This document shows positions 45,419-64,000 of a DNA stretch of 64,000 bases, piece after piece. The DNA is from Candidatus Hermodarchaeota archaeon (lineage in GTDB: Archaea > Asgardarchaeota > Hermodarchaeia > Hermodarchaeales > Hermodarchaeaceae), in assembly GCA_016839805.1 (NCBI GenBank), contig JAEOTO010000036.1, positions 33,008 to 97,007 of the forward strand, given 5' to 3'. The notes under the pieces were generated by a model that saw nothing but the letters and a program-made list of their open reading frames with translations, was not told where the DNA came from and searched no databases. The translations under genes were made by a program, and so were the position numbers. Within the stretch, counting starts at the first letter, position 1. Each line of letters begins with the position of its first letter.

Positions 45419-45462
45419 AATCTACCACCTTTTCCTCAAATACAGATGTTGACTGTAAAAAA

Positions 45463-45509
45463 TGTTTCATTGTTTCAGACACATAAGAACAAAGAATTAT
45501 GAACAAAGA
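45463..45509. promoter_or_regulatory. short direct repeats in a divergent promoter region; candidate operator sites
   Basis: TGTTTCA-T-TGTTTCA (45463-45477), and GAACAAAGA at 45487-45495 and 45501-45509. The 12-mer AATTATGAACAA (45495-45506) recurs at 49170-49181, upstream of the next + strand operon. Confidence 0.3.
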
Positions 45510-45552
45510 CCGACCGATAACACTATACAATATTCCTTAGGAGTGTCGCAGT

Positions 45553-47487: not shown

Positions 47488-47579
47488 GTTTCCAATGAAA
47501 TAACCTGTTGAATGCACTTAAAAGAGTGCACGGTGCAAAGATGGAGAGTTGCTCCTTCCTATTTGAATGGTGGAATCAA

Positions 47580-48749
47580 ATGAGACCTGTATCTGTTGTT
47601 GGTGTTGGACTCACCCAATGGGGCAAACGCAATGATGTTTCATTGGGTGAACTCATTGTTGAATCAGCCAAACATGCCTTCGAAGATACTAAGAGGCTCG
47701 CGCCTAAAGATATTGAAGCATTGTATGTCGCAAATGCCCAATCAGAACGATTTACCGAACAAGCACACCCAGCAAATCTCGCTGCAGAATTTCTGGGTAT
47801 CTCTCCTAAGGTAACCGCTCGAGTTGAAATGGCCTGTGCCAGTGGAGGCGCTGCGTTTCGCAATGCCTTCTTTACTATTGCATCAGGACAAGCAGAATCG
47901 GCTCTTGTTTCTGGCGTTGAAAAAATGTGTAATGTGCCTTCTTCTGAAGCTATGCGCAATCTCTGCTTGGTTGAAGATTTGACCTGGGAAAGCTTCCATG
48001 GCATGATTCCGCCCTCTGGATTTGCCCTTATTGCATCACGGTATATGCATGAATATGGTGTGACTCAAGAACAACTCGCAAAGATTGCAGTAAAAAATCA
48101 TAAGAATGGCAGTAAAAATCCTATTGCTCAGTTTCGTAAAGAGATCACCATTGAAACAGTCCTTGAATCACCCATGATTGCACACCCACTGAATCTCTAT
48201 GACTGTAGTCCGATTTCTGACGGATCCGCAGCAGTCATTCTGGTCCCTACAAAAGAAGCCCGAAAATACAACGATACTCCTGTTGATGTGATCGGTTCAG
48301 GACAGTTCATGGAACCTTCCTTCAACTGTTCTAATATGCAAAGCCTGACAACGTGGCGAGCACTAGTCAATGCTGCAAATAACGCTTATTCCATGGCAAA
48401 ACTCACACCTAAAGATATGGATCTAGCCGAAACCCACGATTGCTTTACCATTGCTGAACTCATCGAATATGAAGATCTAGGATTATGTAAAAAAGGTGAG
48501 GGACCACAACTCGTTGATAGTGGGGATACTGAAATTGGAGGACGAATCCCCGTCAACCCCTCTGGAGGTCTCAAATCGAAAGGTCATCCTGTGGGTGCAA
48601 CTGGTGTTGCACAAATCGCTGAAGTAACAGAACAGCTTCGTGGTGAAGGTGGTCCACGACAAGTCGATGGAGCAATCACAGGGATCACTCAGAACCTAAG
48701 TGGATTTGCCACACATCATGTGGTACACATTCTACGGAGGCAAAACTAA
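47580..48749 (+). CDS. thiolase (archaeal SCP-x type), second copy
   Basis: VSVVGVGLTQWGKR, MACASGGAAFR, GHPVGATGVAQI. I moved the start to the ATG at 47580, which has GGTGG 6 nt upstream. Confidence 0.85.
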   Translation: MRPVSVVGVGLTQWGKRNDVSLGELIVESAKHAFEDTKRLAPKDIEALYVANAQSERFTEQAHPANLAAEFLGISPKVTARVEMACASGGAAFRNAFFTIASGQAESALVSGVEKMCNVPSSEAMRNLCLVEDLTWESFHGMIPPSGFALIASRYMHEYGVTQEQLAKIAVKNHKNGSKNPIAQFRKEITIETVLESPMIAHPLNLYDCSPISDGSAAVILVPTKEARKYNDTPVDVIGSGQFMEPSFNCSNMQSLTTWRALVNAANNAYSMAKLTPKDMDLAETHDCFTIAELIEYEDLGLCKKGEGPQLVDSGDTEIGGRIPVNPSGGLKSKGHPVGATGVAQIAEVTEQLRGEGGPRQVDGAITGITQNLSGFATHHVVHILRRQN

Positions 48750-48750
48750 G

Positions 48751-49161
48751 ATGACCGAACAACCCATGGACCTTCCCTATTGCCTTGACTATCCTGGATC
48801 TCAAATCAAACCATTCTGGGATAATCTTGCTCAAAATAAATTCACCACTACAAAATGCCCCAAATGCGGAGTACTATGGCCACCCAAATCAACCTGCCCC
48901 CAATGTGGCGATAAGACCGCAGAATGGATTGAACTGAAAGGAATGGGTGAAATCTATGCGAAAACCCACGTTGGTGCAGCTCCTCCTGCATTCAAGGAGA
49001 TGCTACCCTACATCCTTGCTGTCGGGAAACTCGATGAAGGGATACTAGTGGTCGCTCGGGTGGAAAATGCGAAATATGAAGATCTTGAAATTGGTTCACC
49101 AATTAAAATTGAAATAAAGAAATCCTTTGGGCTAGATTCCTACGTATTCGTTCCGATTTAA
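48751..49161 (+). CDS. Zn-ribbon OB-fold protein (DUF35), second copy
   Basis: TTKCPKCGVLWPPKSTCPQCG. I moved the start to the ATG at 48751, directly after the thiolase stop and with GGAGG upstream. Confidence 0.8.
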   Translation: MTEQPMDLPYCLDYPGSQIKPFWDNLAQNKFTTTKCPKCGVLWPPKSTCPQCGDKTAEWIELKGMGEIYAKTHVGAAPPAFKEMLPYILAVGKLDEGILVVARVENAKYEDLEIGSPIKIEIKKSFGLDSYVFVPI

Positions 49162-49317
49162 TTCACACAAATTATGAACAAGTTGGACTTTTTGAAGCAA
49201 TTTCCTTCTACAACCATTTTCATAATGAATTTTTTCACGCCAATCAGAAATTGTGGTATCAAGTAGAAACTTCAAATAAGAGAATCTGGTATTAACCCAC
49301 CTACTTTGGTGGTTAAG

Positions 49318-50253
49318 ATGGCTAAACCCAAATACAAAGAAATTCTCTATGAGAAGAAAGACTGGGTCGCTACCATCACAATCAATCGTCCAGACAAATA
49401 TAACGCATATACCCTTTTGACACTCAACGAAATGTCTGAAGCTCTTCACAACGCTTCATGGGATGATGAAGTCGGTGTCATCGTCGTGACCGGTGCAGGT
49501 AAGAACGCATTCTGCACCGGAGGTGATGTCAAAGAATATGCAACCAAATACACCAAAAAACCCCGAGATTTTTGGAAATGGTGCGAAATCTTCGAACGTG
49601 CATTACATCTGCTACGACATTGTGGAAAACCAGTAATTGCCAGGCTGAATGGAATTGTCGCTGGTGGTGGAAATGAAGTCCAAATGGCTTGCGACCTAGC
49701 AATAGCCGCAGACCATGTTGAGATACTACAGGTTGGAACACGGGTTGGCAGTGTCGCTGCGGGAGGTGCAACTCAGTGGCTACCAATTATCATCGGTGAC
49801 CGCCGAGCCCGGGAAATGCTCTTCACATGCGATCGAATCAGTGCAGAAAAAGCCAAGGATTGGGGCCTTGTCAACGAAGTAGTCCCCTATGATAAACTCG
49901 ATGATGCCATCGCTGATTGGTCAAAGAAAATCCTCGAAAAATTCCCCGAATGCCTTCGCTTTACCAAAGCTCAAGTAAACTTCTGGAAAGACCTTGTCTG
50001 GTCACTCACATGGCCCAGCGTTCGAGACTGGCTTAGCGTCCACTTCAGTTCCCAAGAACCTCATGAAGGAATGTGGGCATTCGTTGAGAAACGACCTCCA
50101 GCATATATGCGACTTCGACAGGAAGCCGCGGATGGCAAATCACCTGAATTCAAATGGGGTCCATGGGAAAAGACCTGCCCCAGTTGTGGAACAAAATACC
50201 TACCCAGCGAGTTTACACACTGCGGAAAATGTGGCGCAAAGCTAAACAAATAA
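49318..50253 (+). CDS. MenB/BadI-like crotonase-family enzyme with a C-terminal zinc-ribbon extension
   Basis: YKEILYEKKDWVATITINRPDKYNAY...VVTGAGKNAFCTGGDVKEY...GGGNEVQMACDLAIA resembles the DHNA-CoA synthase / 2-ketocyclohexanecarboxyl-CoA hydrolase subgroup. An extra tail carries CPSCGTKYLPSEFTHCGKCG. The start is the ATG at 49318, after GGTGG. Confidence 0.75.
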   Translation: MAKPKYKEILYEKKDWVATITINRPDKYNAYTLLTLNEMSEALHNASWDDEVGVIVVTGAGKNAFCTGGDVKEYATKYTKKPRDFWKWCEIFERALHLLRHCGKPVIARLNGIVAGGGNEVQMACDLAIAADHVEILQVGTRVGSVAAGGATQWLPIIIGDRRAREMLFTCDRISAEKAKDWGLVNEVVPYDKLDDAIADWSKKILEKFPECLRFTKAQVNFWKDLVWSLTWPSVRDWLSVHFSSQEPHEGMWAFVEKRPPAYMRLRQEAADGKSPEFKWGPWEKTCPSCGTKYLPSEFTHCGKCGAKLNK

Positions 50254-50337
50254 CCCACAATCACTTCTCAAATAACCCTCATTTCCACCTCAATTCGAGG
50301 TTTCAAACCAATAAAGGGTTCTAGACAGATTAAGGGG

Positions 50338-51201
50338 TTATTTATTCCAATCGTAGAATCCTTGCTTCGTCTTTCTTCCCAACTTGCCTTCCTTAACCAT
50401 CTTGGCAAGTAGTGGAGCTGCGGCATATTTGTCTTTATCCATCTCTTTCTGGAACACTTTCGTAATCGAAAGGGTGGTGTCTAATCCGACATAATCCAAG
50501 AGGGTGATTGGTCCCATTGGCCAGTTTAGGCCCAATTTGATTGCCTTGTCAATATCCTCTGGTTCTGCTACATCCTCTTGGAGCAACCAGATGGCTTCGT
50601 TTAGCGCAGGAACTAGTACACGGTTGACGATAAAACCAGGTGAATCTTTCTTACAAAGCACAGTTTCCTTTCCCATTTTCTCCGATACGTGTTCAACGAT
50701 TTTGACAGTGTCATCCGAAGTCTTCTCTCCCCGAATTATTTCAACAAGCTTCATAATTTGTACAGGATTAAAGAAGTGCATACCAACGACCTTATCTGAA
50801 CGTTTAGTAACTGAGGCTATTCGGCTAATACTAATCGAGGAAGTATTTGATGAGAGAATGGTATGTGATGGGGCGAGTTCATCCATTTCGGCAAAGATCT
50901 TCTGCTTTAGATCCAGGTTTTCAGGAACTGCCTCAATGACGAAATCAGTGTCGCTCATAGCCTCTTTCATATCAAGGGTGGGGTGGATGCGCTTAAGAAC
51001 CGCGTCTGCGTCAGCTTGAGCGATTTTCTCTTTTTCAACTAGCTTGCCAAGGCTCCATTTAATTCGACCCATGCCTGTGTCGATGAATTCTTGTTTGATA
51101 TCTTTCAGGTATACATCATATCCAGCGATCTGGGCTAGAACCTGTGTTATGCCGTGACCCATGAGTCCAGCACCAATAACTGTGACTTTTTTGACTTCCA
51201 A
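50338..51201 (-). CDS. 3-hydroxyacyl-CoA (3-hydroxybutyryl-CoA) dehydrogenase
   Basis: KKVTVIGAGLMGHGI Rossmann motif, HFFNPV, FIVNRVL. I moved the start to the TTG at 51201 (GGTGA + 5 nt), which gives M-EVKKVTVIGAG. The ORF-track start at 51258 would leave only 2 nt to the divergent gene. Confidence 0.85.
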   Translation of the reverse strand: MEVKKVTVIGAGLMGHGITQVLAQIAGYDVYLKDIKQEFIDTGMGRIKWSLGKLVEKEKIAQADADAVLKRIHPTLDMKEAMSDTDFVIEAVPENLDLKQKIFAEMDELAPSHTILSSNTSSISISRIASVTKRSDKVVGMHFFNPVQIMKLVEIIRGEKTSDDTVKIVEHVSEKMGKETVLCKKDSPGFIVNRVLVPALNEAIWLLQEDVAEPEDIDKAIKLGLNWPMGPITLLDYVGLDTTLSITKVFQKEMDKDKYAAAPLLAKMVKEGKLGRKTKQGFYDWNK

Positions 51202-51326
51202 AAGTGTCACCTCACAGACGCTATGCAAGATGTTACTAAAAAAGCTGTTATTCATCAATAATGTATGTTGCTTTCAAGCGTATTTTTATGCGAAATATGT
51301 TATCTGTGGGTATTGAGTGGATTCTT

Positions 51327-52562
51327 TTGCGCCTTGTGATTATTGGAAGCGGAGCTGCTGGACTTAGTGCAGTGCAAACGATAATTGGACAAGGGACCAC
51401 CCTTGACGTTGTATTAATCACAAAGGATACGCGATTCTACGCGCTATTCTCTCTTCCCTCTTTCATCGCTGGAGAAATTGAAGACAAACACCTTGACAGA
51501 TTTGATCTTCAGTACTTCAAAGACGCTGGAATCAAAATAAAACTGGACACCAATGTAACAGCTGTGAATCCAGAATCTAAATCAATCCACCTTGAATCCG
51601 GGGAAGACCTTCCCTTTGATCGACTCCTTATCGCCACAGGTGCATCCGCAATCAAACCTCCTATCGAAGGGCTTGACAAAGATGGCGTAGTAACCCTGGT
51701 AAATTTACAAGATAGCCAAGCCATCCTAGCCAGGGCAAAACACAAGATAAAACATGCAGTCATAATTGGTGGTGGGTTTGTCGGCATCGAAAGCGCCACT
51801 GCTCTCCACAGTCTTGGTGCCCAAGTTACAATCATTGAAAGAGAAAATCATCTTCTACCCCGAATGCTAGATGAAGATACAGCAGGAATTGTGAATCAGC
51901 TCTTACAAAAACAGGCCATAGAAATTCATACTTCAACAACTGTTAGCAAAGTACTCGGTGAGAAAGCCGTCCAAGGAGTCCAAGTGGGTCGAAAACAACT
52001 ACAATGTGATCTAGTCGTCGTAGCCGTGGGAGTTCGTCCTAATCTTGACATTATCAAAGAAACCAAAATTAATACAAATGAAGGAATTCTTGTCAACGAA
52101 TATATGCAAACCAACGTGGCAAACATATACGCGGCAGGAGACGTCGCTGAAGCATTAGATCGCGTAACGAACAAATTAAAAATTAATGCAATATGGCCAA
52201 ATGCCATTTCCCAAGGACAAGTTGCAGCACTAAATATGCTCGACCACCAGATTCCATATCAGGGATCTGATGCAATCAACCTAATTAACATCTTCCAGAC
52301 ACCAGTGCTTAGCATCGGCCAGATTTCAAAAGAGATAGGGACTTGTGAAGTTATCCGTATAAACAGAAATAAGGTGTACAGGAAACTGCTTCTTTGTGAT
52401 GGCAAGGTCTTGGGATATCAGGCAATTGGTGATATTCGGAATGCCGGGTTTCTCTTGCACGCTCATCGAACCGGTGCCGACATAACCGATGTCCTCGATT
52501 CTCTGAAAAAAGATAATCTAATTGCCCAGCACTATTGGCGGTCTCAAGAAAAACTAAAATAA
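51327..52562 (+). CDS. FAD-dependent pyridine nucleotide-disulfide oxidoreductase (AorC-like candidate)
   Basis: VIIGSGAAGLSA (FAD), AVIIGGGFVGIESA (NAD), IYAAGDVAE. The start is uncertain. The ORF opens at 51261. The TTG at 51327 gives the canonical M-RLVIIGSGAAG, and the ATG at 51297 is also possible. Confidence 0.75.
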   Translation: MRLVIIGSGAAGLSAVQTIIGQGTTLDVVLITKDTRFYALFSLPSFIAGEIEDKHLDRFDLQYFKDAGIKIKLDTNVTAVNPESKSIHLESGEDLPFDRLLIATGASAIKPPIEGLDKDGVVTLVNLQDSQAILARAKHKIKHAVIIGGGFVGIESATALHSLGAQVTIIERENHLLPRMLDEDTAGIVNQLLQKQAIEIHTSTTVSKVLGEKAVQGVQVGRKQLQCDLVVVAVGVRPNLDIIKETKINTNEGILVNEYMQTNVANIYAAGDVAEALDRVTNKLKINAIWPNAISQGQVAALNMLDHQIPYQGSDAINLINIFQTPVLSIGQISKEIGTCEVIRINRNKVYRKLLLCDGKVLGYQAIGDIRNAGFLLHAHRTGADITDVLDSLKKDNLIAQHYWRSQEKLK

Positions 52563-52581
52563 TCACAAAAAGGTTCTTGAA

Positions 52582-53037
52582 TTATTTCTCCGTGATGAGA
52601 ACTCGGGCTAGCTGTTCTTTTCGTCGTTGCATTGCTTCCTGTGTTTCCTCAGCATATTCAATGGCCTTTGTGGAACAAAATTTAACGCATTGCGGATCAC
52701 CACCACAAAGGTCGCAATGGATGAGTTCCTTACCATGAGTTGTTATAGCAGAAAAGGGGCAGACAACCGCACATAATCTACAGCCAATACAACGATCATC
52801 GTCGCGTGTTGCAACCCCCTCATCTTTTGTAATAGCGTTTTGTGGACAGGCTGTGACACAAGGCGCATCTTGACATTGAAAACATACTACCGGAAACTCA
52901 AACCGTTCAAATTCGTCTCGAACAACACTAATCGCTGCTTTACGTGGGTTGCATTCACCGAATTTGGTTAATGAGCAAGCGAGTGAGCATAATCGACACC
53001 CTGTACAGCGTTCGGGATAGACGAAGATGTACTTCAT
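52582..53037 (-). CDS. 4x[4Fe-4S] ferredoxin-like electron-transfer subunit (AorA-like)
   Basis: 151 aa with four Cys clusters: CTGCRLCSLAC, CFQCQDAPCVTAC, CIGCRLCAVVC and CDLCGG..PQCVKFC. It overlaps the AOR gene stop by 4 nt. Confidence 0.85.
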   Translation of the reverse strand: MKYIFVYPERCTGCRLCSLACSLTKFGECNPRKAAISVVRDEFERFEFPVVCFQCQDAPCVTACPQNAITKDEGVATRDDDRCIGCRLCAVVCPFSAITTHGKELIHCDLCGGDPQCVKFCSTKAIEYAEETQEAMQRRKEQLARVLITEK

Positions 53038-54881
53038 TCAATCGCCTCCAATTCAGTAATGCGATCTTTTGATAACATCCCTTGGTCATTCCACCCACGA
53101 AGAGCATAATATCGGTTTAACATGGTATCAAATTGTTTACGATCAATATGATGGCCTTTCGCGGTCTTCAGGGGGGCTGGATCATCAAAATAACGTTTAG
53201 GTAGTGAATCATCTGCGCGTGTGAGTCCGAATCGAAGATTGAGGATTCGTTCAGTATCAATGATTCGCTGTCCGACCTTTTGCAACTCTGAAATTTCGAA
53301 GTTGAGGTCAACTGTGGCTTGTAAGAAATCCCTTACATGTTCATATCCAATGAGATGGGGGCTGTTGAAACCATGGCAGATGAATTTGCAGATTCCTACC
53401 GCATCAATTACTGCGTACATGTTATCTGACCAAAAGACGGTTTTTTCCTTGCCTTCGTATGAGCTAGGGTCAGGGGAGATGCCCGATCCATAAATGTTAT
53501 CTTTCACTTCTTGAGGCAATCGGAGAAAGATTTCCAGAGTAGGTCGACTACGCAGATGATCTGCACCTCTCGACGCAGTTGCTATCCCTAATGCAAATGC
53601 CTTGATATACCGAACATCATGAGGGTCGCTTTGTGGTAAGTTCTTCACTGCTATGAGATAATCCGCAGATTTTGATCCAAAATACTTTACAGCTTGACTA
53701 CTTTCCGCTAAAATATCTCCCAGACCCTCACGGTGGGAGATTTTTTCTAGGAGGGATTTAGCGAGTTCGAAGTTTTCGAATTCGAGTTTCTCTCCCTGAA
53801 ACTTAGCTTTGTCTACAATTCCTTTTTCATAGAGTTCGAAGACCCAAGCGAGTATACTCCCAGCAGATGCTGTGTCTAATCCAAGGCGGTTACAGAGGTT
53901 ATTCAACTCAATGACCTGTTTTGGATCCGAGATTCCAATATTCGCTCCCAATAAACCAATAGTCGTGTATTCAGGGCCTTCTCCGTTCATGGTATTTCGA
54001 TGCCGACAATGTACAATGCAAGAGGCACAGGATACCATCTTCTCGACATATTCTTCGAAATATTCCGCGTTCAGTGAATCGGACCAGGCATTCAGCTGGC
54101 TGTTCTTGGTGCGAATCGCTCCCAGTGCATTACTAACATCATACAGATAAGGAGATCCTAACTTGCCCATGACCGAGATGACCTTCGAGTTCAGGACATA
54201 ATCGTTGACACGTTTCGTAATCTCCAGAAGTTGTTCCGGATGAGCGACATTAAGACCTTGAGTTCCATATGCGACCAAGGCCTTCAGGTTCTTTGAACCC
54301 ATGACCGCACCTAGTCCGCCCCGCCCTCCGGCGTTCTTTACTCCGTTTCGTATGTTGGCAAATCGAATGAGTTTTTCACCAGCTTCTCCGGTGACAGCGG
54401 CCTGTACATCCCCCAAATCCTTCCGTAGCTCGGTTTGAACTTTATAAGTATCAAGACCCCAATAATCCAACGCATCTCGAATTTCAACAGAGCCATCCTG
54501 AAGGAAAATATAACTCGGTTTCTTCGCTTTACCAAGAATAATAATCCGGTCAAAGCCAGCATAGCGCATCTCCGGGCCAAAATAACCTCCACAATTAGTG
54601 TCACCAAGAAACCCTGATTCCGGGGATTTCGCTGTCACATTGAAACGTGACGCGTTCGGGATAAGGAACCCAGTAAGCAAACCAGCACCAAATATCAGCA
54701 CGTTTTCCGGAGAAAAGGGATCCACATTCTTCCTAAGCAATTTGTTAAGATAGTAGACGTTCGTACCTCGACCGCCTAAATAGCTTCTAATTACATTTGC
54801 TGGTGTTTTACCAATTTTCACTGAGCCTTTAGTAAGGTTGACAATAGCATATTGATTTGCTGCCATTTTGGGTTCTTCCAT
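53034..54881 (-). CDS. tungsten-dependent aldehyde:ferredoxin oxidoreductase (AOR family)
   Basis: 615 aa. YAIVNLTKGSVKI...YLGGRGTNVYYL at the N-terminus, plus GLDTASAGSILAWVFELYEKGI and the overall length, are typical of the AOR family. Confidence 0.85.
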   Translation of the reverse strand: MEEPKMAANQYAIVNLTKGSVKIGKTPANVIRSYLGGRGTNVYYLNKLLRKNVDPFSPENVLIFGAGLLTGFLIPNASRFNVTAKSPESGFLGDTNCGGYFGPEMRYAGFDRIIILGKAKKPSYIFLQDGSVEIRDALDYWGLDTYKVQTELRKDLGDVQAAVTGEAGEKLIRFANIRNGVKNAGGRGGLGAVMGSKNLKALVAYGTQGLNVAHPEQLLEITKRVNDYVLNSKVISVMGKLGSPYLYDVSNALGAIRTKNSQLNAWSDSLNAEYFEEYVEKMVSCASCIVHCRHRNTMNGEGPEYTTIGLLGANIGISDPKQVIELNNLCNRLGLDTASAGSILAWVFELYEKGIVDKAKFQGEKLEFENFELAKSLLEKISHREGLGDILAESSQAVKYFGSKSADYLIAVKNLPQSDPHDVRYIKAFALGIATASRGADHLRSRPTLEIFLRLPQEVKDNIYGSGISPDPSSYEGKEKTVFWSDNMYAVIDAVGICKFICHGFNSPHLIGYEHVRDFLQATVDLNFEISELQKVGQRIIDTERILNLRFGLTRADDSLPKRYFDDPAPLKTAKGHHIDRKQFDTMLNRYYALRGWNDQGMLSKDRITELEAIE

Positions 54882-54889
54882 GGGGTTCG

Positions 54890-55186
54890 TTATCCACCAC
54901 CAACTGCCATTACTAGCGTTAATGTCGTGGAATGATGAATCAGGATATCATTAAGATTTTCCTGAAGGACAGGTTTGTTGTCAACAAAAATGTTGAGATA
55001 CTTGTGAACCTCACCAGACTTGTTATATAATTCTTGACTTAGAACAGGATGCATTTTAATTAGTCTGCTAAGAATGGTATGAATAGTATCATTACCCTCT
55101 AGGTCCAGGACTACTTCTTCGATTCCCGTCGTAATCTTCAATACGCCAACCAGACGTATTGTAATACCCAAATCCGCATTTTCCAT
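54890..55186 (-). CDS. MoaD/ThiS-family ubiquitin-like beta-grasp protein ending in Gly-Gly
   Basis: 98 aa ending ..LVMAVGGG*. It lies immediately upstream of the AOR gene. Confidence 0.7.
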   Translation of the reverse strand: MENADLGITIRLVGVLKITTGIEEVVLDLEGNDTIHTILSRLIKMHPVLSQELYNKSGEVHKYLNIFVDNKPVLQENLNDILIHHSTTLTLVMAVGGG

Positions 55187-55292
55187 CGAATCTCTCCATA
55201 ACGTCCATCGACAGAAATCAAAAATCTTTACTTTTCTCCAGTTCTCTTTGCTTCCTAAAGGCTATAAGGTTCAAAGTCAGATATGCACCTCG

Positions 55293-56324
55293 GTGGTTAT
55301 ACTGAAAGCCGCAGTTTTTTATGAAGCTGGAAAACCTCTAAAAATTGAAGATGTCCCGACACCAGAAATTGGACCCGCTGACGTTTTGATTAAAGTGGCA
55401 GCCTGTGGTGTGTGCAGGACCGATTTACACTATTTGCATGGGACTCCGACCTTCAAAAAACCCCCATTGATCCTTGGACATGAAGCCTCGGGGACCATCG
55501 CAGAAATGGGTTCTGCCGTTGAAAACTGGGCTAAGGGTGATCGCGTTTTAATTCCTGCTGTTCTTAGCTGTGGATTTTGTGATAATTGTCGTTTAGGACG
55601 TGAAAACATATGCCAACGACAAGAAATGGTTGGGAATAACATTGATGGCGCCTATGCTGAATACATCCGTGTTCCTGCTAAGGATGTACTTCGAATTCCC
55701 GATTCATTACCTTTGGAAGAAACAAGTATCGTAGCTGATGCGATTTCTACACCTTATCACGCTGTGAAAAATCGTGGAGAAGTTCGACCGGGGGATTTGG
55801 TTGCCGTATTTGGATGTGGTGGCGTTGGTATCAATGTAGTTCAAATTGCTGCTGCAGCGGGTGGCTTTGTTTATGCCGTTGATATCGATGATAAGAAACT
55901 AAAGTTAGCCGAAAAACTTGGTGCTTCTGTGACTATTAATTCGAAGGATGAAAATCCTGTCAAACAGATTAGAGCTATGACAAAGAAGCGAGGTGTCGAT
56001 ATCTCCTTTGAGGCAATTGGAATTCCTGACGTTATGAGTCAAGCACTGGCGGCTGTGAGATGGGGTGGTCGGATGGTTGTTGTAGGCTATGCCGAATCCG
56101 ATTGGACCGTTTCAGCTTCACGAATCATGTTCCGAGAAGTAGAAATCCGTGGATCTCTTGGTTGCCGTCTCGTTGACTATCCTCCCCTCCTACGGATGGT
56201 GGAAAAAGGTTTCATTCAGATCAAACCGATAATCGACAGCAAACGACCACTTGGAGAAATTAATGAAGCATTCAAACTTCTTGAGGAAGGAAAGGTTCTT
56301 GGTCGGATTATCATTATTCCCTAA
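55293..56324 (+). CDS. Zn-dependent alcohol dehydrogenase
   Basis: KAAVFYEAGKPLKIEDV, CGVCRTDLHY, GHEASGTIAEMG, and the structural Zn Cys cluster CGFCDNCRLGRENIC. No in-frame ATG exists. The candidates are TTG 55248, GTG 55293 and possibly CTG 55302. Confidence 0.8.
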   Translation: MVILKAAVFYEAGKPLKIEDVPTPEIGPADVLIKVAACGVCRTDLHYLHGTPTFKKPPLILGHEASGTIAEMGSAVENWAKGDRVLIPAVLSCGFCDNCRLGRENICQRQEMVGNNIDGAYAEYIRVPAKDVLRIPDSLPLEETSIVADAISTPYHAVKNRGEVRPGDLVAVFGCGGVGINVVQIAAAAGGFVYAVDIDDKKLKLAEKLGASVTINSKDENPVKQIRAMTKKRGVDISFEAIGIPDVMSQALAAVRWGGRMVVVGYAESDWTVSASRIMFREVEIRGSLGCRLVDYPPLLRMVEKGFIQIKPIIDSKRPLGEINEAFKLLEEGKVLGRIIIIP

Positions 56325-56337: not shown

Positions 56338-57114
56338 CTATTTTCCTTTCCATTCGGGTTTTCGTTTTTCTAAGAACGCTTTGAGTCCCTCTGAAGCATC
56401 CTCTGTGTTCTTTAATGCGTCTAGGTAAATCTCTGTGGATTTTTCGATGGCAGCCATGAAGTCAAGGTGCAAGCTCTCGTAAATCGCCCGACGAATGTAT
56501 CGGAGCATTATGGGACTGTACTCTCTTAGTTTGGTAATAAATTCATTGACGGTGTTATCTAATTGGTCAGCAGGCACAGCGTGGTTAATGAGTCCAATCT
56601 GTTCAGCCTTTTCTGCGGAAATGCTATCTCCAGTATAAAGCAGCTCAAAGGTTCGTTTTTGGCCAATCAGGTGATGTATAGCCGCTGCGGCTACTGTGGG
56701 TACTGCACCAACTTGGATTTCTGGTTGACCAAACTTGGCTGAATCAACGGCAATCACCACATCACAAGCGAAGGCTATTTCACATCCTCCACCCAATGCG
56801 GATCCTTGAACAACAGCGATAACGGGTTTATCGACATCAACGATGGCTTCAAAGACATTATTGAATGCCTCTAACGTTTTCGGTGCATATTTTGGGAGGT
56901 GTTGTTCCACATCCACTCCAACTGAAAAGAACCGGTCGCCAGCTGTTTTTAAAAGAATGATATTGGCTTCTCCATTGGTCTTCATCTCCTGAAGCGCCTT
57001 TTGAAGTTCTGTAAGTGTTTTTTGATCAAGAATATTTAAGGGCGGTCGGTTCACCAAAATGGTACATACTCCGTCTGAAACTTCAACCTTGATATTAGAA
57101 TATCTAGAACCCAT
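56338..57114 (-). CDS. enoyl-CoA hydratase (crotonase family)
   Basis: VCTILVNRPPLNIL, GDRFFSVGVDV, GSALGGGCEIAFACD, QPEIQVGAVP. The start is the ATG at 57114, preceded by GGAAGGAG. Confidence 0.85.
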   Translation of the reverse strand: MGSRYSNIKVEVSDGVCTILVNRPPLNILDQKTLTELQKALQEMKTNGEANIILLKTAGDRFFSVGVDVEQHLPKYAPKTLEAFNNVFEAIVDVDKPVIAVVQGSALGGGCEIAFACDVVIAVDSAKFGQPEIQVGAVPTVAAAAIHHLIGQKRTFELLYTGDSISAEKAEQIGLINHAVPADQLDNTVNEFITKLREYSPIMLRYIRRAIYESLHLDFMAAIEKSTEIYLDALKNTEDASEGLKAFLEKRKPEWKGK

Positions 57115-57217
57115 GGTATTGCTCCTTCCAAACACGAGTTCAATAGTTATTATGATATAGAAAGAAAGAGACTTAAGTTTATACTTTCCATATTAGTTAA
57201 TTAGGCTGGCTGAGACA

Positions 57218-58507
57218 ATGATGCTTGACGAATTAGAGGCAGATGGTTTAATTGTTAACTTTAACAAGGTTCAACAAACTAAACCAAAGCATTTACCCAA
57301 AGAAGTACTTATCTGGGATGAAACCCTCCGCGATGGCGAGCAGACACCAGGGACTAGTCTTTTGATTGATGAAAAAATCGAAATCGCAAAGCTAATGGAT
57401 GAGATGGGTATTGCCATTATCAATGTCGGTTTTCCTGCGGTTTCAAAAGATGAACAAGAGGTCGTTCGGCGAATTGCCGCTGAGGGATTCAAACAAGCCA
57501 AAATTTGCGCTCCGGCTCGTGCCATTAAGTCTGATATCGATGTTGCCATCCAATCTGGAGCGGAAGAAGTACCTATCTTCATTGCCTTCAGTAATCTTCA
57601 CTTGAAGTACAAACTTAAGAAAACCCCTGAAGAGGTACTTAACATCGTGACAGACTGTGTTGAATATGCCAAAAAACATGGAGTTATTATCGATTTCGTC
57701 TCTGAAGATACATCTCGCACTAGCATTGATAATACAGTGAAGATCTTCAAAACTGCCATTGAGGCTGGCGCCGATCGAGTCGTTATTACGGATACCGTGG
57801 GCTTTCTGAGACCTGAATCGATGCGATATTTGGTCTCCCAAATCCGCGACCGCCTTTACGAAGAGGTCAAACGAAAAGTTCCCCTCTCGATTCATAACCA
57901 CAATGACTTTGGTTTAGCCACCGCCAACACATTAGCCGCGATTGAAGAGGGTGTCACTGTTCCCCACGTTTGTGTTGCAGGTTTTGGAGAACGTGCTGGC
58001 AATGCTCCCCTCGAAGAAGTTGTGATGGCGTTAGAATTCCTTTATGGTGTTCGAACAGGCATCAAAACTGAACGAATCCAAGAACTTGCCGATCTAGTTA
58101 GCCAGTCGTTTGCCATTCTCCTTCCTGTACATAAAGCGATCACTGGCGAAAACGCTTTTTCACATGAAGCAGGCATCCACGTTCATGGTATCCTCTCTCA
58201 TCGTCTCACTTACGAACCAATCCCCGCTGAAACTGTTGGACGCAAAACAGAGTTCTACTTGGGCAAACACACTGGAAGTCAAATTGTGAAAACAAAACTT
58301 GAACAAAAAAACATTGAGGCCACAGATGAGCAAATCGGACAAATTGTTTTACAAGTTAAAGAGACACACAAACTCAGAGACAAAGTCGAAATGCTACGAC
58401 AATTACAAAGTGCTGCAGAACTCCTTCGAGAAACACGCCTTGGTTTGAAAGAAGATGAGTTCTGGAATATTGTAACCGCCGTTACTGGGAAAAAACCCAA
58501 AAAATGA
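57218..58507 (+). CDS. 2-isopropylmalate / homocitrate / citramalate synthase family enzyme (HMGL-like)
   Basis: IWDETLRDGEQTPG, HNHNDFGLATANTLAAIEEG and GERAGNAPLEEV are present. At 429 aa it lacks a long LeuA regulatory domain. Confidence 0.8.
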   Translation: MMLDELEADGLIVNFNKVQQTKPKHLPKEVLIWDETLRDGEQTPGTSLLIDEKIEIAKLMDEMGIAIINVGFPAVSKDEQEVVRRIAAEGFKQAKICAPARAIKSDIDVAIQSGAEEVPIFIAFSNLHLKYKLKKTPEEVLNIVTDCVEYAKKHGVIIDFVSEDTSRTSIDNTVKIFKTAIEAGADRVVITDTVGFLRPESMRYLVSQIRDRLYEEVKRKVPLSIHNHNDFGLATANTLAAIEEGVTVPHVCVAGFGERAGNAPLEEVVMALEFLYGVRTGIKTERIQELADLVSQSFAILLPVHKAITGENAFSHEAGIHVHGILSHRLTYEPIPAETVGRKTEFYLGKHTGSQIVKTKLEQKNIEATDEQIGQIVLQVKETHKLRDKVEMLRQLQSAAELLRETRLGLKEDEFWNIVTAVTGKKPKK

Positions 58508-58529: not shown

Positions 58530-59198
58530 ATGCGGAAAAACTCTCGCAAAAAGGTGAATGAAATCCCAACAAAAAGAGAGAAGCTCACCAACGCGGCAGT
58601 CAAAAACGTAGCAAATTTAATGGCGGCTGCAGCTACAACCGCACCCAAATCCAAAGGCTTCGATGATCTTACAATTGAAATTGTCTCTGGAGCCACAATT
58701 CAGCAAATTGCAAAAGAAATTCAAAAAATGCGCCAAGAAGACCTCACTAACCAAACATTTTGGTTTTTGGAACCCGACGCTGAAGCCGTAAAGGAAAGTG
58801 CAGCCATTTTCCTCCTAGGTATTCAGGCCAAACGCCCTCCTCTTACGCTTGATTGTCAAGCCTGTGGCTTCGAAACCTGCGCTGATTTTGAAGAAGCCAT
58901 TCGCCAAAATAGAACCACAGCCCTTTGCGCCTTCAAAATTCTAGATTTAGGCATAGCTCTCTCCTCTGCAACAACGGTGGCAGCCCAACACTTCATCGAT
59001 AATCGAATGATGTGGTCCGTCGGCATGGCTGCACAACGATTAGATCTAATAAAAGGCGACATGGTCCTCGGAATCCCTCTCGCCGTAAAGGGCAGTAATC
59101 CCTTCTTTGATCGTTATCTTCGGTTTTTTCTGCAACGCGCCCGTGAGCAAGGAAAGAATCTAACGCAAGTACTCCGCGAACAAGGGTTCAATCTCTAG
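58530..59198 (+). CDS. DUF2148 domain protein
   Basis: AVKNVANLMAAAATTAPKSKGFDDL...LDCQACGFETCADFEEA matches the DUF2148 pattern as I remember it. Confidence 0.55.
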   Translation: MRKNSRKKVNEIPTKREKLTNAAVKNVANLMAAAATTAPKSKGFDDLTIEIVSGATIQQIAKEIQKMRQEDLTNQTFWFLEPDAEAVKESAAIFLLGIQAKRPPLTLDCQACGFETCADFEEAIRQNRTTALCAFKILDLGIALSSATTVAAQHFIDNRMMWSVGMAAQRLDLIKGDMVLGIPLAVKGSNPFFDRYLRFFLQRAREQGKNLTQVLREQGFNL

Positions 59199-59689
59199 AG
59201 AGAACGATCCCACGATTCTTCAAAGTCAGAATTGGTAACCATCTGTCTTAGCATTCGAGTAATTCTGCGCCCCATGGCAGTTGCGACAATAACCCGCGCG
59301 TCTTCCTCTGAATGTTTGATTAGCCCAGTCTTCTCAAGTAAAGAAACATGATGGGTTACCACAGCTGGCGAATCACCGCCCTCTTTTGGTTTTAAGGATT
59401 TGAGATGTTGCCGCAGCGATTTATTCGTACCAAAATCACGGTCAGATAAGAATTCCAGAATGGCCACCCGTGATGGGTGGGTGATTGCCGAAAGTAAATC
59501 TCGAATCCTATGCGTATACCAATTTGTCAAGTGATAGACTCCTTGATTGATATGTCCATAACCATACCAATTCTTTTTATCAACATTGAATATTGGACCA
59601 TTATTATAAAACAGTTTTGCAAAAATTCTTAAGGAATTCCATACCAGTATCGCTCGAAGTTTACACTCCATACTCACAATATGTTTCAT
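59195..59689 (-). CDS. wHTH (ArsR-like) transcriptional regulator, divergent from the BCR-like operon
   Basis: The C-terminal HPSRVAILEFLS...VVTHHVSLLEKTGLIKH is ArsR-like. The ORF track extends to 59986, but that extension overlaps the well-supported N-terminus of the + strand dehydratase-family gene. The likely start is ATG 59689 or ATG 59671. Confidence 0.55.
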   Translation of the reverse strand: MKHIVSMECKLRAILVWNSLRIFAKLFYNNGPIFNVDKKNWYGYGHINQGVYHLTNWYTHRIRDLLSAITHPSRVAILEFLSDRDFGTNKSLRQHLKSLKPKEGGDSPAVVTHHVSLLEKTGLIKHSEEDARVIVATAMGRRITRMLRQMVTNSDFEESWDRSL

Positions 59690-59704
59690 GGCAGGAAGAT
59701 CCCT

Positions 59705-60829
59705 ATGTTTGATAAATTCAAAGAATGGTATGATAATCGTCACGACTATGCACAGGCTTGGAAAAAACGAACGGGTGGAAAAGTACTCGGCTACTTCTGC
59801 ACTTATGTCCCTGAAGAACTCCTTATTGCAGCTGATATCCTTCCCGTTCGCATCCTTGGTAGCCACGAGGCACAGGATGTTACCGAACCTCATATCTTTG
59901 GAATGTTTTGCCCCTTTTGCCGTGACTGCTTGGCTCAAGGTTTGAAAGGTCGATACGATTATCTCAATGGCATCATGATTGCCCAATCATGTCTCCATAT
60001 CCGTCAAACGTATAGTAGCTGGGTTAAACACATTCCACAAGAATTCAGCTATTACCTGTATATGCCCCATGGAGTCCAGACACCGCATGCTTATCCCTAT
60101 TTGCGAGGTGAACTAGCAGTTTTCAAGGAGGCATTGGAGAAGTGGATGGGACGCCCAATTTCGAATAAGAACATAGATCGAGGCATTGAGGTCGTTAACA
60201 AAAATCGCCAATTGATGAAAAAAGTCTATGAGTTTCGGAAACAAGAAAATCCTCCATTAACAGGGCTAGAGGCAATGTACATGGTCGTTTCTAGTCAAAT
60301 GGTCAACAAAGAGGAACATAACCGGGCTCTGGAAGAAGTGCTCAAAGAACTGCCGAACCGGAAACTCAACCGAAACACTGGGACCCGCCTAATGATACTG
60401 GGAAGTGAAGACGATGATACGGAATTTGTGGAAATGTTGGAGTCATTGGATTCTACGCTAGTTGTTGACGACCACTGTACGGGAACTCGCTACTTCTGGA
60501 ACGAAGTTGAACCCCAAGAAGACCGTCTGGCAGCTATAGCTGCCCGATATATCGATCGACCACCCTGTCCGAGTAAAGATTGGCCAGAGCGGAAACGGTT
60601 CCCACATATTTTACAGCTGGTTAAAGATTACAATGTTCAAGGTGCTCTCGTCATCCAACAGAAATTCTGTGATCCCCATGAATTAGACATGCCAGCCCTG
60701 AGAAAAATGCTTGAGGAGAATGGCATTCCAACCTATTTCTTAGAGTTTGATGTGACGGTACCAATTGGACAATTTAAGACTCGTGTTGAAGCGTTTCTGG
60801 AAACGTTTGCATTACCCGACCTATTTTAG
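59705..60829 (+). CDS. benzoyl-CoA reductase / 2-hydroxyacyl-CoA dehydratase family subunit (BcrC/BadD/HgdB-like)
   Basis: MFDKFKEWYDNRHDYAQAWKKRTGGKVLGYFCTYVPEELLIAADILPVRILG is the family-typical N-terminus, and the Cys motif CPFCRDC is present. Confidence 0.85.
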   Translation: MFDKFKEWYDNRHDYAQAWKKRTGGKVLGYFCTYVPEELLIAADILPVRILGSHEAQDVTEPHIFGMFCPFCRDCLAQGLKGRYDYLNGIMIAQSCLHIRQTYSSWVKHIPQEFSYYLYMPHGVQTPHAYPYLRGELAVFKEALEKWMGRPISNKNIDRGIEVVNKNRQLMKKVYEFRKQENPPLTGLEAMYMVVSSQMVNKEEHNRALEEVLKELPNRKLNRNTGTRLMILGSEDDDTEFVEMLESLDSTLVVDDHCTGTRYFWNEVEPQEDRLAAIAARYIDRPPCPSKDWPERKRFPHILQLVKDYNVQGALVIQQKFCDPHELDMPALRKMLEENGIPTYFLEFDVTVPIGQFKTRVEAFLETFALPDLF

Positions 60830-60838
60830 GTGATGAAA

Positions 60839-62137
60839 ATGGTTGAGATAAAATATCAAACTAAACCTTTAGATATCTGGAATGAAGGGAAGGCGCTACG
60901 ACAGCAATATTACGAGAATTATGCCAAAGCCCATGAAAAGGGTGGAATCCGATGGGCTGGCGGAGCCTGGGCCTATAGTGCGGTTCCTGCGGGTCTGGGT
61001 GACGATGTATGGAGTCTAACTGGGGAACCTTATGGGGCTTCAGTTGCGTTCAACAAGGAATTTGCAGCTCGATGCCAAGAAGCCATTGAAGCGAAAGGAT
61101 TTGCCCGGGATTTGTGTGCGTATTTACGGAATTATCTTGGTTCGGTAGTTCTAGACGAATATGTGTTTGGTGGAAAATTTCCTAAACCAGATTTCATGTG
61201 GACGACTCATATTTGTTGTAGTCACGCGAAATGGTATCAAATCGCTAGCGACCTAGAAGGCGGAGTACCATTCTTCTGTATAGATGTAAGCACTGGGCTA
61301 ATTCAAGATTTCAGCGAACGCCGTCGAGACTACGTGGTTAATCAATTGCTAGATGGTATTGATTGGCTCGAGGAGACCACAGGGCGAGATTATGATGATG
61401 AAAAACTTATCCAAGCTGTCTATAACGAATGTGAGGCCACTTCTCTGTGGGCTGAAATCTGTGCTATGAATAAAACCATTCCAGCGCCACTTGATGAAAA
61501 GACGATGTATTCACTCTATGTATTTGGTACCATCATGAAGCATCGTCCCGAGATTGTGGCGTTCTATCGAAAACTTCGTGATGAAGTTCAAGAGCGAGTT
61601 GATAATAAAATCGCCGCAGTGGGAAATGAACATCGACGTGTCATCACGGACACTCAACCCCCATGGGGATTTCTTGAGATTTTCCGATATCTCGAAAAGT
61701 ACGGCGTGGTGTCAGTAGGATCACTTTACACTTTTTCCCTGATTGGTGCGTGGGAAGTGAAGGACGATGGGACCTGGGGTCCTAAAACAACTCCCCAAGA
61801 GCAAGGAATTGATATTACAACCCGAAGGCAAGCACTTGAAATTTTAGCTGATTGGACCCATGCTCGGCCTGAGTGGCAGCACTTCTATTCCGCGCAGGAG
61901 AAAAGTGATATGATGCTTCGCATCGTGCGAGAATGGCAAGTTGATGGCGTTATGTTACATTATAATCGCGGATGTGAAGGTTTGTCGTTAAATATCGCTG
62001 AGAATCGTCTCGCTTTTAAGGAAGCAGGTGTCCCCGTTCTTCCCTTTGAAGGGAATATGGGAGATGAACGAGAGTTCGATTTAGAACGCACGAAGAAGGC
62101 TGTGGATTCCTTCTTAGAATTGTTAGGAGTTAAGTAG
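60839..62137 (+). CDS. benzoyl-CoA reductase / 2-hydroxyacyl-CoA dehydratase family subunit (BcrB/BadE/HgdA-like)
   Basis: About 433 aa from the same superfamily (..DLCAYLRNYLG.., ..HICCSHAKWYQ.., ..VDGVMLHYNRGCEGLS..). The start is the ATG at 60839, after GGTGA + 5 nt. Confidence 0.8.
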   Translation: MVEIKYQTKPLDIWNEGKALRQQYYENYAKAHEKGGIRWAGGAWAYSAVPAGLGDDVWSLTGEPYGASVAFNKEFAARCQEAIEAKGFARDLCAYLRNYLGSVVLDEYVFGGKFPKPDFMWTTHICCSHAKWYQIASDLEGGVPFFCIDVSTGLIQDFSERRRDYVVNQLLDGIDWLEETTGRDYDDEKLIQAVYNECEATSLWAEICAMNKTIPAPLDEKTMYSLYVFGTIMKHRPEIVAFYRKLRDEVQERVDNKIAAVGNEHRRVITDTQPPWGFLEIFRYLEKYGVVSVGSLYTFSLIGAWEVKDDGTWGPKTTPQEQGIDITTRRQALEILADWTHARPEWQHFYSAQEKSDMMLRIVREWQVDGVMLHYNRGCEGLSLNIAENRLAFKEAGVPVLPFEGNMGDEREFDLERTKKAVDSFLELLGVK

Positions 62138-62150
62138 GAGGTAGACAAAT

Positions 62151-62927
62151 TTGATTACTGCGGGAATTGACTTTGGCGCTAGGAATGTGAAAGTTGTCAT
62201 TCTCGAAGATGGAAAAATAGCTGCTCGAGGAACTGCCTTAACGGGATTTGATCTTAAAATTGCAGCCAAAGAAGCCTCTGAGATGGCTCTAAAAGCTGCC
62301 AAGTTGAAGCTCGATGAAATAACCCACATCACAGAAACAGGAATTGGTCAAGGGTCAGTCGAGTTTGCAGCAGATAGTGTTAGCGAAGTAGGAGCGAATG
62401 CAAAAGCAGGGGTTAAGTTGTTACCTTCAGCTCGCACCATAATTGATGTGGGGGCTGAAGAAGCTCGTGCGGTCAAATGTAATGAATCTGGTGCTATGGA
62501 AGACTTTGTAGTGAATGAACGGTGTGCTGCTGGTGCAGGCGCATTTGTTGAAGCCATGTCTCGTGCGCTTGAAGTTGAACTAGAGCAAATGGGTCCTATG
62601 TCCTTGAAAGCCACTGAAGCAGTTCCTATGAATGCTCAATGTACTGTTTTCGCTGAATCTGAGGTAGTATCACTAATTCATGCTCAGACACCAAAAGCGA
62701 ATATCGCCTGTGCAATTCACGACGCTATTGCCGAACGAGTGATTTCAATGGTTCGAAGGTTAGGGATAACGGAAGATGTCTTATTGGTTGGAGGATTAGC
62801 CTATGATGTTGGCTTTGTCGATTCGATGAAGCGTGGATTAGGTGTGGAGGTTCACGTGCCTGAGTTTCCCGAATATGTAAGTGCTTATGGCGCTGCATTG
62901 ATAGCCCGGGAAAGGGCAAAGGAGTGA
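62151..62927 (+). CDS. BcrAD/BadFG/HgdC-type ATPase subunit 1
   Basis: ITAGIDFGARNVKVV, cluster-ligand contexts NERCAAGAGAFVE and QCTVFAESEVVSLI, VGGLAYD. The TTG start follows AGGAGGT + 8 nt. Confidence 0.85.
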   Translation: MITAGIDFGARNVKVVILEDGKIAARGTALTGFDLKIAAKEASEMALKAAKLKLDEITHITETGIGQGSVEFAADSVSEVGANAKAGVKLLPSARTIIDVGAEEARAVKCNESGAMEDFVVNERCAAGAGAFVEAMSRALEVELEQMGPMSLKATEAVPMNAQCTVFAESEVVSLIHAQTPKANIACAIHDAIAERVISMVRRLGITEDVLLVGGLAYDVGFVDSMKRGLGVEVHVPEFPEYVSAYGAALIARERAKE

Positions 62928-62932
62928 TGAAA

Positions 62933-63823
62933 ATGGCAAAGAAGGAATTTTGGAGATGGCCTGAATATCGTCATACAGTTGAGGGCATCGACCCCCAAAA
63001 TGGGAAGGTGATTAGTGGAGGGGTTGACATTGGATCCGTCAGTTCGAAGACTGTGATCATGGTTGATGGAGAAGTGTTTGCACAGAGCGTCATGCGAACT
63101 GGGTCCAGTAGTCCTGATAGTGCGGAGCGGACGATGAACTGGGCTCTTGAAGATACTGGGGTTACTCTTAAAGACATTCATTATGTCGTTGGAACTGGTT
63201 ATGGGCGGGTCAATATTCCCTTTGCCCAAAAGGCGATAACTGAAATCGCTTGTCATGGACGTGGAGCAAGCTTCATGTGGGGACCATCGGTTCGGACTGT
63301 TTTGGATATGGGCGGTCAAGATTGTAAAGCTATCCGTGTCGATGAAAGGGGAAAGGTTCAGAACTTTCTCATGAATGATAAGTGCGCAGCGGGAACCGGT
63401 CGTGGCATGGAAGTGTTTGCAGATCTTCTATCGGTTCCTATCCAAGAAGTCGGAGACCGATCCTTTGCGGTGAAAGAAGAACCGCAAGCCGTTAGTAGTA
63501 CTTGTGTGGTGTTTGCAAAGTCAGAAGCTGTTGGGCTTCTTCGAAGCGGTTGGTCAAAGGATGAGGTTCTCGCAGCATATTGTCAAGCTATGGCACATCG
63601 TGTCGTTGACCTTCTAAATCGTGTAGGCGTCGAAAAAGAATTCGTAATCACTGGTGGAATTGCTAAAAATATCGGGATAGTCAAACGTGTTGAAAAAGAG
63701 CTTGGGATTCAGGCACTCAAACCTGATCAATGGCGTGATGACCCACGATTTGATCCCATGCTGGCAGGGGCTGTAGGGGCTGCACTATTTGCTAAGGTTC
63801 TCTATGAACGATCTCAAGGATAA
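62933..63823 (+). CDS. BcrAD/BadFG/HgdC-type ATPase subunit 2
   Basis: GGVDIGSVSSKTVI, NDKCAAGTGRGMEVF, STCVVFAKSEAVGLL, TGGIAKN. It is distinct from subunit 1. Possible starts are GTG 62924, ATG 62927 and ATG 62933. Confidence 0.85.
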   Translation: MAKKEFWRWPEYRHTVEGIDPQNGKVISGGVDIGSVSSKTVIMVDGEVFAQSVMRTGSSSPDSAERTMNWALEDTGVTLKDIHYVVGTGYGRVNIPFAQKAITEIACHGRGASFMWGPSVRTVLDMGGQDCKAIRVDERGKVQNFLMNDKCAAGTGRGMEVFADLLSVPIQEVGDRSFAVKEEPQAVSSTCVVFAKSEAVGLLRSGWSKDEVLAAYCQAMAHRVVDLLNRVGVEKEFVITGGIAKNIGIVKRVEKELGIQALKPDQWRDDPRFDPMLAGAVGAALFAKVLYERSQG

Positions 63824-63838
63824 TGTTAGTTCATCTAG

Positions 63839-64000
63839 GTGAAATTGTTGATAGCAAATTACGGATACAAGGATGGTTCTGGGGAATATTTCATAACTTT
63901 GGATACAGACAAATGTGATGGGTGCGGGAAATGCGTTGAGGTCTGTCCTGCATCGGTATTAGAAGTAATCCCAAATGAGTTCGATATCGAAGATGGCAAT
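63839..64000 (+). CDS. 4Fe-4S ferredoxin, 5-prime part (truncated by the window end)
   Basis: The GTG at 63839 opens VKLLIANYGYKDGSGEYFITLDTDKCDGCGKCVEVCPASVLEV.., which contains a CxxCxxCxxxCP motif. The frame stays open to the window end. Confidence 0.65.
   Translation, partial: MKLLIANYGYKDGSGEYFITLDTDKCDGCGKCVEVCPASVLEVIPNEFDIEDGN

Follow-up and report, generated by a model that had tools for sequence, protein, structure and literature searches.

At the right-hand end of the window, a 64,000-nucleotide stretch of a contig from a Candidatus Hermodarchaeota archaeon (GenBank assembly GCA_016839805.1), lies a set of genes that an earlier note, made from the sequence alone, had read as an operon for a four-subunit benzoyl-CoA reductase with its own ferredoxin. 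Anaerobic degradation of aromatic compounds turns on the reduction of the benzoyl-CoA ring, its central and most difficult step, whose occurrence in Asgard archaea bears on their part in the carbon cycle of sediments. Gene calls and Pfam matches recovered the claimed layout in full. Two genes for catalytic subunits with HGD-D domains, bzdN (59705–60829, plus strand, 374 aa, with an alternative ATG at 59681) and bzdO (60830–62137, plus strand, 435 aa), are followed by two different ATPase genes with BcrAD_BadFG domains, a bzdP-like gene (62151–62927, plus strand, 258 aa) and bzdQ (62924–63823, plus strand, 299 aa), which overlap by 4 bases. This subunit order, N-O-P-Q, is the one that marks the Bzd type. 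Next comes a bzdM-like Fer4 ferredoxin gene, of which the window end leaves only the 5' part (63839–64000, plus strand).

The contig continues for 2.4 kb beyond the window. There the ferredoxin gene is complete (L004:1847–2164, 105 aa, ending about 156 bases past the window), and directly 3' of it lies a gene for a BzdV-like protein of more than 735 aa (L004:2233–4437) with 2Fe-2S, NuoG-type 4Fe-4S and GltD-type FAD/NAD(P)H domains. Downstream, the reductase genes are thus adjoined both by a ferredoxin and by a protein of the type that reduces ferredoxin (NuoG/GltD-type).

Family assignment, cluster ligands and active site

To tell the Bzd, Thauera-type and dehydratase subtypes apart, we used NCBIfam equivalog models with curated cut-offs. 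BzdN scored 516 bits against TIGR03190 (cut-off 454), BzdO 611 bits against TIGR03191 (cut-off 449) and BzdQ 405 bits against TIGR03192 (cut-off 380). The Thauera-type models TIGR02259 to TIGR02263 (BcrCBAD/BadDEFG) gave 139, 44, 91–155 and 112–126 bits, below their cut-offs of 313–578, with N at 139 (BcrC), O at 44 (BcrB) and Q at 155 bits (BcrA). On the dehydratase models N reached 191 bits (HadC) and O 136 bits (HadB), where the cut-offs are 700 and 750. The scan gave no BzdP-specific model; the best model for P was the generic activase TIGR00241, with BcrAD_BadFG and TIGR00241 scoring 200 bits. We placed P by its position and by its identity to the P genes of other operons. In a tblastn survey of 80 named loci (the best 80 matches, all from metagenome-assembled genomes, MAGs) and 12 Asgard loci, nearly every related locus has an orthologue with 48–64% identity in the place between bzdO and bzdQ.

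Comparison with solved structures gave the same picture. The best matches were Aromatoleum BzdO at 591 bits (8S02_A) and BzdN at 494 bits (8S02_B), and of the first 102 aligned columns between the two BzdO proteins 61 are identical by manual count, or about 60%. 2-Hydroxyisocaproyl-CoA dehydratase HadBC with its activator HadI and the 3-methylbenzoyl-CoA reductase (MBR) MbdONQP belong to the same radical enzyme superfamily and share the ATPase fold with its bridging cluster, but their catalytic subunits reached only 35–172 bits (HadB/HadC 99/172, MbdO/MbdN 35/119); a double-cubane protein scored 90 bits. Among ATPases of known structure BzdQ matched MbdQ at 211 and HadI at 195 bits. For scale, the MBR/Thauera type, which is reported to form a permanent tetramer, is 24–26% identical to Aromatoleum BzdNO (PMC11971306).

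Crystal structures of the enzymatically active BzdNO from Aromatoleum sp. CIB (8S02, 8S1T and 8S2R), in which the functional residues are named, have recently become available (Fuchs et al., 2025; PMC11971306). We mapped these residues by hand on alignments to the 8S02 chains, and compared the BzdO positions across 91 homologues as well. All six cysteine ligands of the [8Fe-9S] cluster are present in BzdN, where C32, C69, C96, C258, C288 and C322 correspond to Aromatoleum Cys36, Cys73, Cys100, Cys263, Cys293 and Cys327. The residues around the cluster are also retained: R49, R262, R285 and H325 for Arg53, Arg267, Arg290 and His330, and S234 and Q319 for Ser239 and Gln324. These matches suggest that BzdN is the electron-transfer subunit of the catalytic dimer and carries a double-cubane [8Fe-9S] site.

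In BzdO, C96, C129 and C382 correspond to Cys95, Cys128 and Cys380, E66 to the catalytic Glu65 and H132 to His131, and all five are invariant in the 91 homologues. Equally invariant is the pocket, with W47, Y98, Q276, Y300, L304 and L385 for Trp46, Tyr97, Gln274, Tyr298, Leu302 and Leu383. BzdO would accordingly be the active-site subunit, with an aqua-[4Fe-4S] cluster and a benzoyl-CoA pocket. One difference, Gly in place of Aromatoleum Ser44, was considered as a change of specificity and dropped, since Gly occupies this position in 89 of the 91 homologues. The earlier note had held that the sequence does not reveal the substrate. That statement can be softened: every part of the benzoyl-binding pocket seen in the crystal structure is retained, which points to benzoyl-CoA as the probable substrate.

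The two cysteine contexts quoted for the ATPases were both found, as NERCAAGAG and CTVFAESE in P and as NDKCAAGTG and CVVFAKSE in Q. In each ATPase the two cysteines align with HgdC Cys127 and Cys166 (numbering counted on an alignment of the 258-aa ATPase to 1HUX), which we take to be the [4Fe-4S] ligands in that structure.

With the equivalog cut-offs passed, the cluster ligands conserved and the ATPase cysteines kept, the family assignment of the earlier note stands. The equivalog scores, the 8S02 matches and the placement on an Asgard contig (see below) all support a four-subunit, Bzd-type class I enzyme with ferredoxin in an archaeon, and judged by its residues against the 2025 structure the archaeal enzyme would have the full catalytic apparatus. 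We consider it highly probable that the locus encodes a genuine Bzd-type ATP-dependent class I benzoyl-CoA reductase, together with its electron supply, in a Hermodarchaeota archaeon.

A route for the electrons can be proposed on this basis. If the enzyme works like its Aromatoleum homologue, the BzdV-like NAD(P)H/Fe-S flavoprotein would keep the BzdM-like ferredoxin reduced, and the ferredoxin would in turn reduce the bridging [4Fe-4S] cluster of the BzdP-BzdQ ATPase heterodimer. ATP hydrolysis would then lower the potential and drive the electron onto the [8Fe-9S] double cubane of BzdN, from which it would move on to the water-bearing [4Fe-4S] cluster of BzdO. There the ring of benzoyl-CoA would gain a hydrogen atom and then an electron and a proton (from the Glu66 equivalent), yielding cyclohexa-1,5-diene-1-carbonyl-CoA. 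The operon forms the core of an accessory island of about 25 kb that also encodes an aldehyde oxidoreductase set and candidates for the downstream steps: dch-like, had-like and MenB/BadI/Oah-like proteins, Hbd, a crotonase and thiolases.

Lower pathway and substrate

Several results weigh against this reading. The genome, which is 87% complete, has no dch, had, oah or benzoate-CoA ligase above the NCBIfam cut-offs, and its best scores for TIGR03200 (Oah) are 147–171 bits against a cut-off of 464. None of the 18 other genomes of the family has canonical Oah either, whereas another Asgard family (f10) has it in 15 of 22; in a further Asgard family with BzdO the count is 0 of 135. Since the family has no canonical Oah, no known enzyme accounts for the step through which ring reduction pays off. 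A PFL-like family search of the same MAG found no glycyl-radical enzyme, which at 87% completeness is not proof of absence, and so no upstream source of benzoyl-CoA is evident. Contigs of a wetland metatranscriptome library (X18) lie on bzdN, bzdO, bzdP and bzdQ, one of them, on bzdQ, being 264 nt long with 4 differences (98.5% identical), and none lies on 59195–59677. From such contigs neither transcription nor its strand or level can be read, and the interval without contigs proves nothing. They are in keeping with the weak evidence for transcripts given by Zhang et al., 2021 (PMC8163825).

The earlier note had proposed a genome-wide check for ring-cleavage genes, and its outcome is mixed: no gene reached a cut-off for dch, had or oah, but the island holds sub-threshold relatives of each. 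A had-like Zn-dehydrogenase (55248–56324, plus strand) scores 263 bits against TIGR03201 (cut-off 339), and a dch-like crotonase (56338–57135, minus strand) scores 143 bits against TIGR03189 (cut-off 292.5); each is the best match in the genome, and the two are syntenic in Hermodarchaeota loci at 82–92% identity and appear as had and dch in the gene list of Zhang et al., 2021. The third is a MenB/BadI/Oah-like crotonase (49306–50253, plus strand) with sub-cut-off scores of 207 bits for MenB, 199 for BadI and 171 for Oah. Its best PDB matches are MenB, and it has a weak C-terminal zinc-ribbon match at residues 288–313. Through these candidates the function of the lower pathway may still be present.

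Similar genes accompany bzd operons elsewhere. In Acidobacteriota and Gemmatimonadota loci this divergent had-like gene recurs at 58% identity. Homologues of the MenB/BadI-like protein with 44–54% identity are encoded near bzd operons in Acidobacteriota (54% in one bzd locus), Bathyarchaeia and an unclassified bacterial MAG (L043), and at some other bzd loci Had (463 bits) and Oah (553 bits) are of the canonical kind. Within the family all 11 bzdO-positive members have the MenB/BadI-like gene and 7 of the 8 bzdO-negative ones lack it, a co-occurrence to be read with the caveat that relatives are not independent samples and that both genes share one island. We disfavour a true MenB, as MenD was not found in the genome and the gene travels with bzdO. 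The MenB/BadI-like protein is in our view the best candidate for the ring-opening hydrolase. More tentatively, Hermodarchaeota and related islands of the Bathyarchaeia and Acidobacteriota type might share a variant lower pathway in which a short zinc-ribbon MenB/BadI-like crotonase replaces Oah/BamA and works with a divergent had-like dehydrogenase; we think this somewhat doubtful. If it were true, surveys of anaerobic aromatic degradation that use bamA or oah as markers would miss these archaea. Ring opening without canonical Oah is in any case a concrete, testable question.

The same gaps could be read in another way, with a Bzd-type reductase acting on an analogue (hydroxy-, methyl- or halo-benzoyl-CoA, or another aryl- or alicyclic-CoA) and the island encoding the variant lower pathway for it. 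The non-canonical, sub-cut-off scores of the had-like, dch-like and Oah-like candidates and the lack of Oah in all 18 other family genomes would fit such a substrate. So would two features of BzdO itself: in Hermodarchaeota and Bathyarchaeia Aromatoleum Gln124 is replaced by Thr, and on the Bzd model the Hermodarchaeota copies score about 90 bits below those of other Asgard archaea. However, Gln124 touches only a solvent molecule beside Glu65 (PMC11971306). The residues that contact the benzoyl ring and the thioester, by contrast, are all invariant in the 91 homologues. It is also common for class I reductases to act on several substituted analogues. We regard a dedicated analogue substrate as unlikely and retain benzoyl-CoA as the probable one.

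The accessory island, its distribution and its origin

The operon lies in an island of some 25–26 kb that begins near 41.9 kb and extends to the contig end (G000:C27, about 74900–99437). Two bzdO-positive congeners, G099 and G106, align collinearly with everything in the window to the right of about 41.9 kb, at 82–87% nucleotide identity. Over the left flank of the island their identity is 65–79%, below that of the island, which hints at recent exchange within the genus. In the bzdO-negative congener G100 we found an empty site, where the left flank lies 1.7 kb from the sequence found beyond the BzdV-like gene in G099. In G101, also bzdO-negative, the left flank was matched and the island was not, and the contig ends soon after the left flank; G100 is the only genome in which the empty site is seen directly. 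No tRNA gene was found anywhere in the 64-kb window. BzdO above the cut-off occurs in 57 of 400 genomes of the GTDB phylum, in 8 of 14 congeners and in 10 of the 18 other family members. The trait thus belongs to a mobile island of about 25 kb and is not a property of the lineage as a whole.

In the survey, the six genes N-O-P-Q-ferredoxin-BzdV-like form a unit that is kept in most of the 80 loci, across more than 10 phyla. Identity to the proteins of the window is 62–77% for N, 64–74% for O, 62–75% for Q, 41–64% for the ferredoxin and 39–53% for the BzdV-like protein, alongside the range already given for P. In a quick, midpoint-rooted maximum-likelihood tree of BzdO, built solely from MAG sequences, the Hermodarchaeota form a clade (support 100) nested within a larger one (also support 100) that takes in Bathyarchaeia and two Anaerolineae. 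The island was acquired laterally, with its nearest relatives in Bathyarchaeia and Anaerolineae. BzdO of the Asgard family f20 (about 700 bits) forms a separate clade, so that Asgard BzdO falls into at least two unrelated clades (L005–L016 and L017–L025). This placement of the other Asgard family elsewhere in the tree implies separate acquisitions of the operon in Asgard archaea, at least two.

Laterally derived genes whose nearest relatives outside Hermodarchaeota are Bathyarchaeia and Anaerolineae would also be seen if a bacterial or bathyarchaeal contig had been misbinned into an Asgard genome. The source is a 99-kb contig of a 2.3-Mb MAG in 50 contigs with 3% estimated contamination, which leaves some room for such an error. 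Against it stands the contig itself, which encodes a Sec23/24-like protein (11582–13219, minus strand) that combines Sec23/Sec24 trunk, VWA and beta-sandwich domains and counts as a eukaryote-like signature of Asgard archaea, and a prolyl-tRNA synthetase (ProRS) of the archaeal/eukaryal type. The same left-flank junction is seen in the independent MAGs G099, G106 and L018 (Ca. Hermodarchaeum yapensis), G100 has the empty site, G101 matches the left flank only, and GC content is even across the window. The closest loci among the best 80 are named Hermodarchaeota MAGs with BzdO 92–95% identical, including Ca. Hermodarchaeum yapensis, Hermodarchaeota FT1_005 and H03M_Hermod_104 (L020), with H02S_Hermod_124 (L025) at 84%. 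Because the Sec23/24-like gene is present and the closest loci are named Hermodarchaeota, we take the contig to be Asgard, and misbinning to be very improbable.

Relation to known systems and neighbouring genes

A bzd/bcr cluster in Hermodarchaeota was described by Zhang et al., 2021 (ISME J; PMC8163825), who reported BzdQ, BzdO, the ferredoxin BzdM, BzdV, dch, had and regulators on one contig and proposed lateral transfer from Chloroflexi. Lineage and cluster are the same as ours; their MAG h03m_104 is H03M_Hermod_104, whose BzdO is 95% identical to that of the window. The Bzd operon in Hermodarchaeota has therefore been known since 2021, and the window confirms it and does not discover it. 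The two accounts differ in that Zhang et al. treat dch, had and oah as identified, whereas we found none at the NCBIfam cut-offs and no canonical Oah in the family. Their paper is without the presence/absence polymorphism of the island, the grouping with Bathyarchaeia and the conservation of the [8Fe-9S] ligands, all three of which are reported here.

Among characterized systems, BzdNOPQ of Aromatoleum sp. CIB has the same subunit set, gene order, cluster ligands, Glu/His pair and benzoyl pocket. It differs in its host, a denitrifying betaproteobacterium as opposed to an anaerobic archaeon, and in the canonical downstream genes that are missing here. The Asgard family f10 has the same N-O-P-Q-ferredoxin-BzdV unit but with canonical Oah at 520–570 bits. 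The reductase of the archaeon Ferroglobus placidus is of the Bzd type. It is likewise an archaeal ATP-dependent enzyme. Anaerobic benzoate catabolism in this organism is described as using a benzoyl-CoA ligase and a reductase (PMC6500515).

The HadBC dehydratase has a single activator gene, in contrast to the two ATPase genes of the window, an argument that the earlier note had used and that the same genome now illustrates. On contig C38 (G000:C38:43170–46440, or L002:380–3649, minus strand) a second locus of the wider family encodes a HadC-like protein of 407 aa, a HadB-like protein of 419 aa and a single activase of 262 aa; its architecture is of the dehydratase type, and every score lies under the equivalog cut-offs. 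That the operon in the window itself encodes a dehydratase for 2-hydroxyacyl-CoAs, or some other enzyme of non-aromatic function from the benzoyl-CoA reductase/dehydratase family, with two activator paralogues is the least probable reading we considered, for although the Pfam families HGD-D and BcrAD_BadFG are common to both and P scores best against the generic activase, the HadC and HadB scores of N and O lie below the cut-offs, the His131 equivalent is present where HadB has Ala, the double-cubane ligand set is complete and the genome holds this separate dehydratase-type locus with its single activase.

Next to the Bzd-type reductase genes lies a small divergent gene (59195–59530, minus strand) for a 111-aa putative winged-helix (ArsR/HTH_20-like) protein with a TTG start. 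The earlier note had placed a divergent regulator here. A conserved minus-strand gene does exist: it occurs at the same position in 8 Hermodarchaeota loci at 80–86% identity, with an ATG start in 5 of the 8 orthologues where the window has TTG, and in the tblastn survey it stands beside bzdN only in Hermodarchaeota loci. It is not the 263-aa minus-strand open reading frame that overlaps bzdN, which we rejected as an open-frame artefact because the orthologues have stop codons in its upstream part. For the regulatory role, matches to helix-turn-helix models are sub-threshold (NF033788 at 21.8 bits against 55, HTH_20 at 14–16 bits, ArsR-type PDB entries at E 0.5–0.9) and the AlphaFold model is poor (pLDDT 53.7, element order H-H-H-H-E-E-H), so that a regulator is plausible and weakly supported. 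Between this gene and bzdN lies a divergent intergenic region of 174 bp (59531–59704), in which A/T-rich, TATA-like stretches can be read.

To the left of the small gene are an HMGL/isopropylmalate-synthase-like gene (57218–58507, plus strand), under all equivalog cut-offs, and a gene for a DUF2148 Fe-S protein (58530–59198, plus strand), which lies between it and the putative regulator. Only in Hermodarchaeota loci are these two genes conserved in their place between the dch-like gene and the regulator. Outside the island, a 1218-aa open reading frame at 16971–20627 (plus strand) had no Pfam match at E ≤ 1e-5.

The rest of the island (41988–55186) encodes a crotonase, an F420-type LLM oxidoreductase, two thiolase/DUF35 pairs, an ACS-like CoA ligase, Hbd and a tungsten aldehyde oxidoreductase (AOR) set. 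All the neighbours named in the earlier note are there: besides the MenB/BadI-like gene they are Hbd (50338–51258), crotonases (41988–42752 and the dch-like gene at 56338–57135) and thiolases (44258–45418 and 47508–48749). The AOR set (51261–55186) consists of a PadH/AorC-like FAD protein on the plus strand and, on the minus strand, a 4Fe-4S subunit, the AOR itself and a MoaD/SAMP-like gene. We rejected the AOR as a subunit of a class II reductase, since it scores 382 bits to Pyrococcus furiosus AOR and 228 bits to BamB. The set resembles the three-subunit AorABC of Aromatoleum, and it could feed aromatic acids into the pathway.

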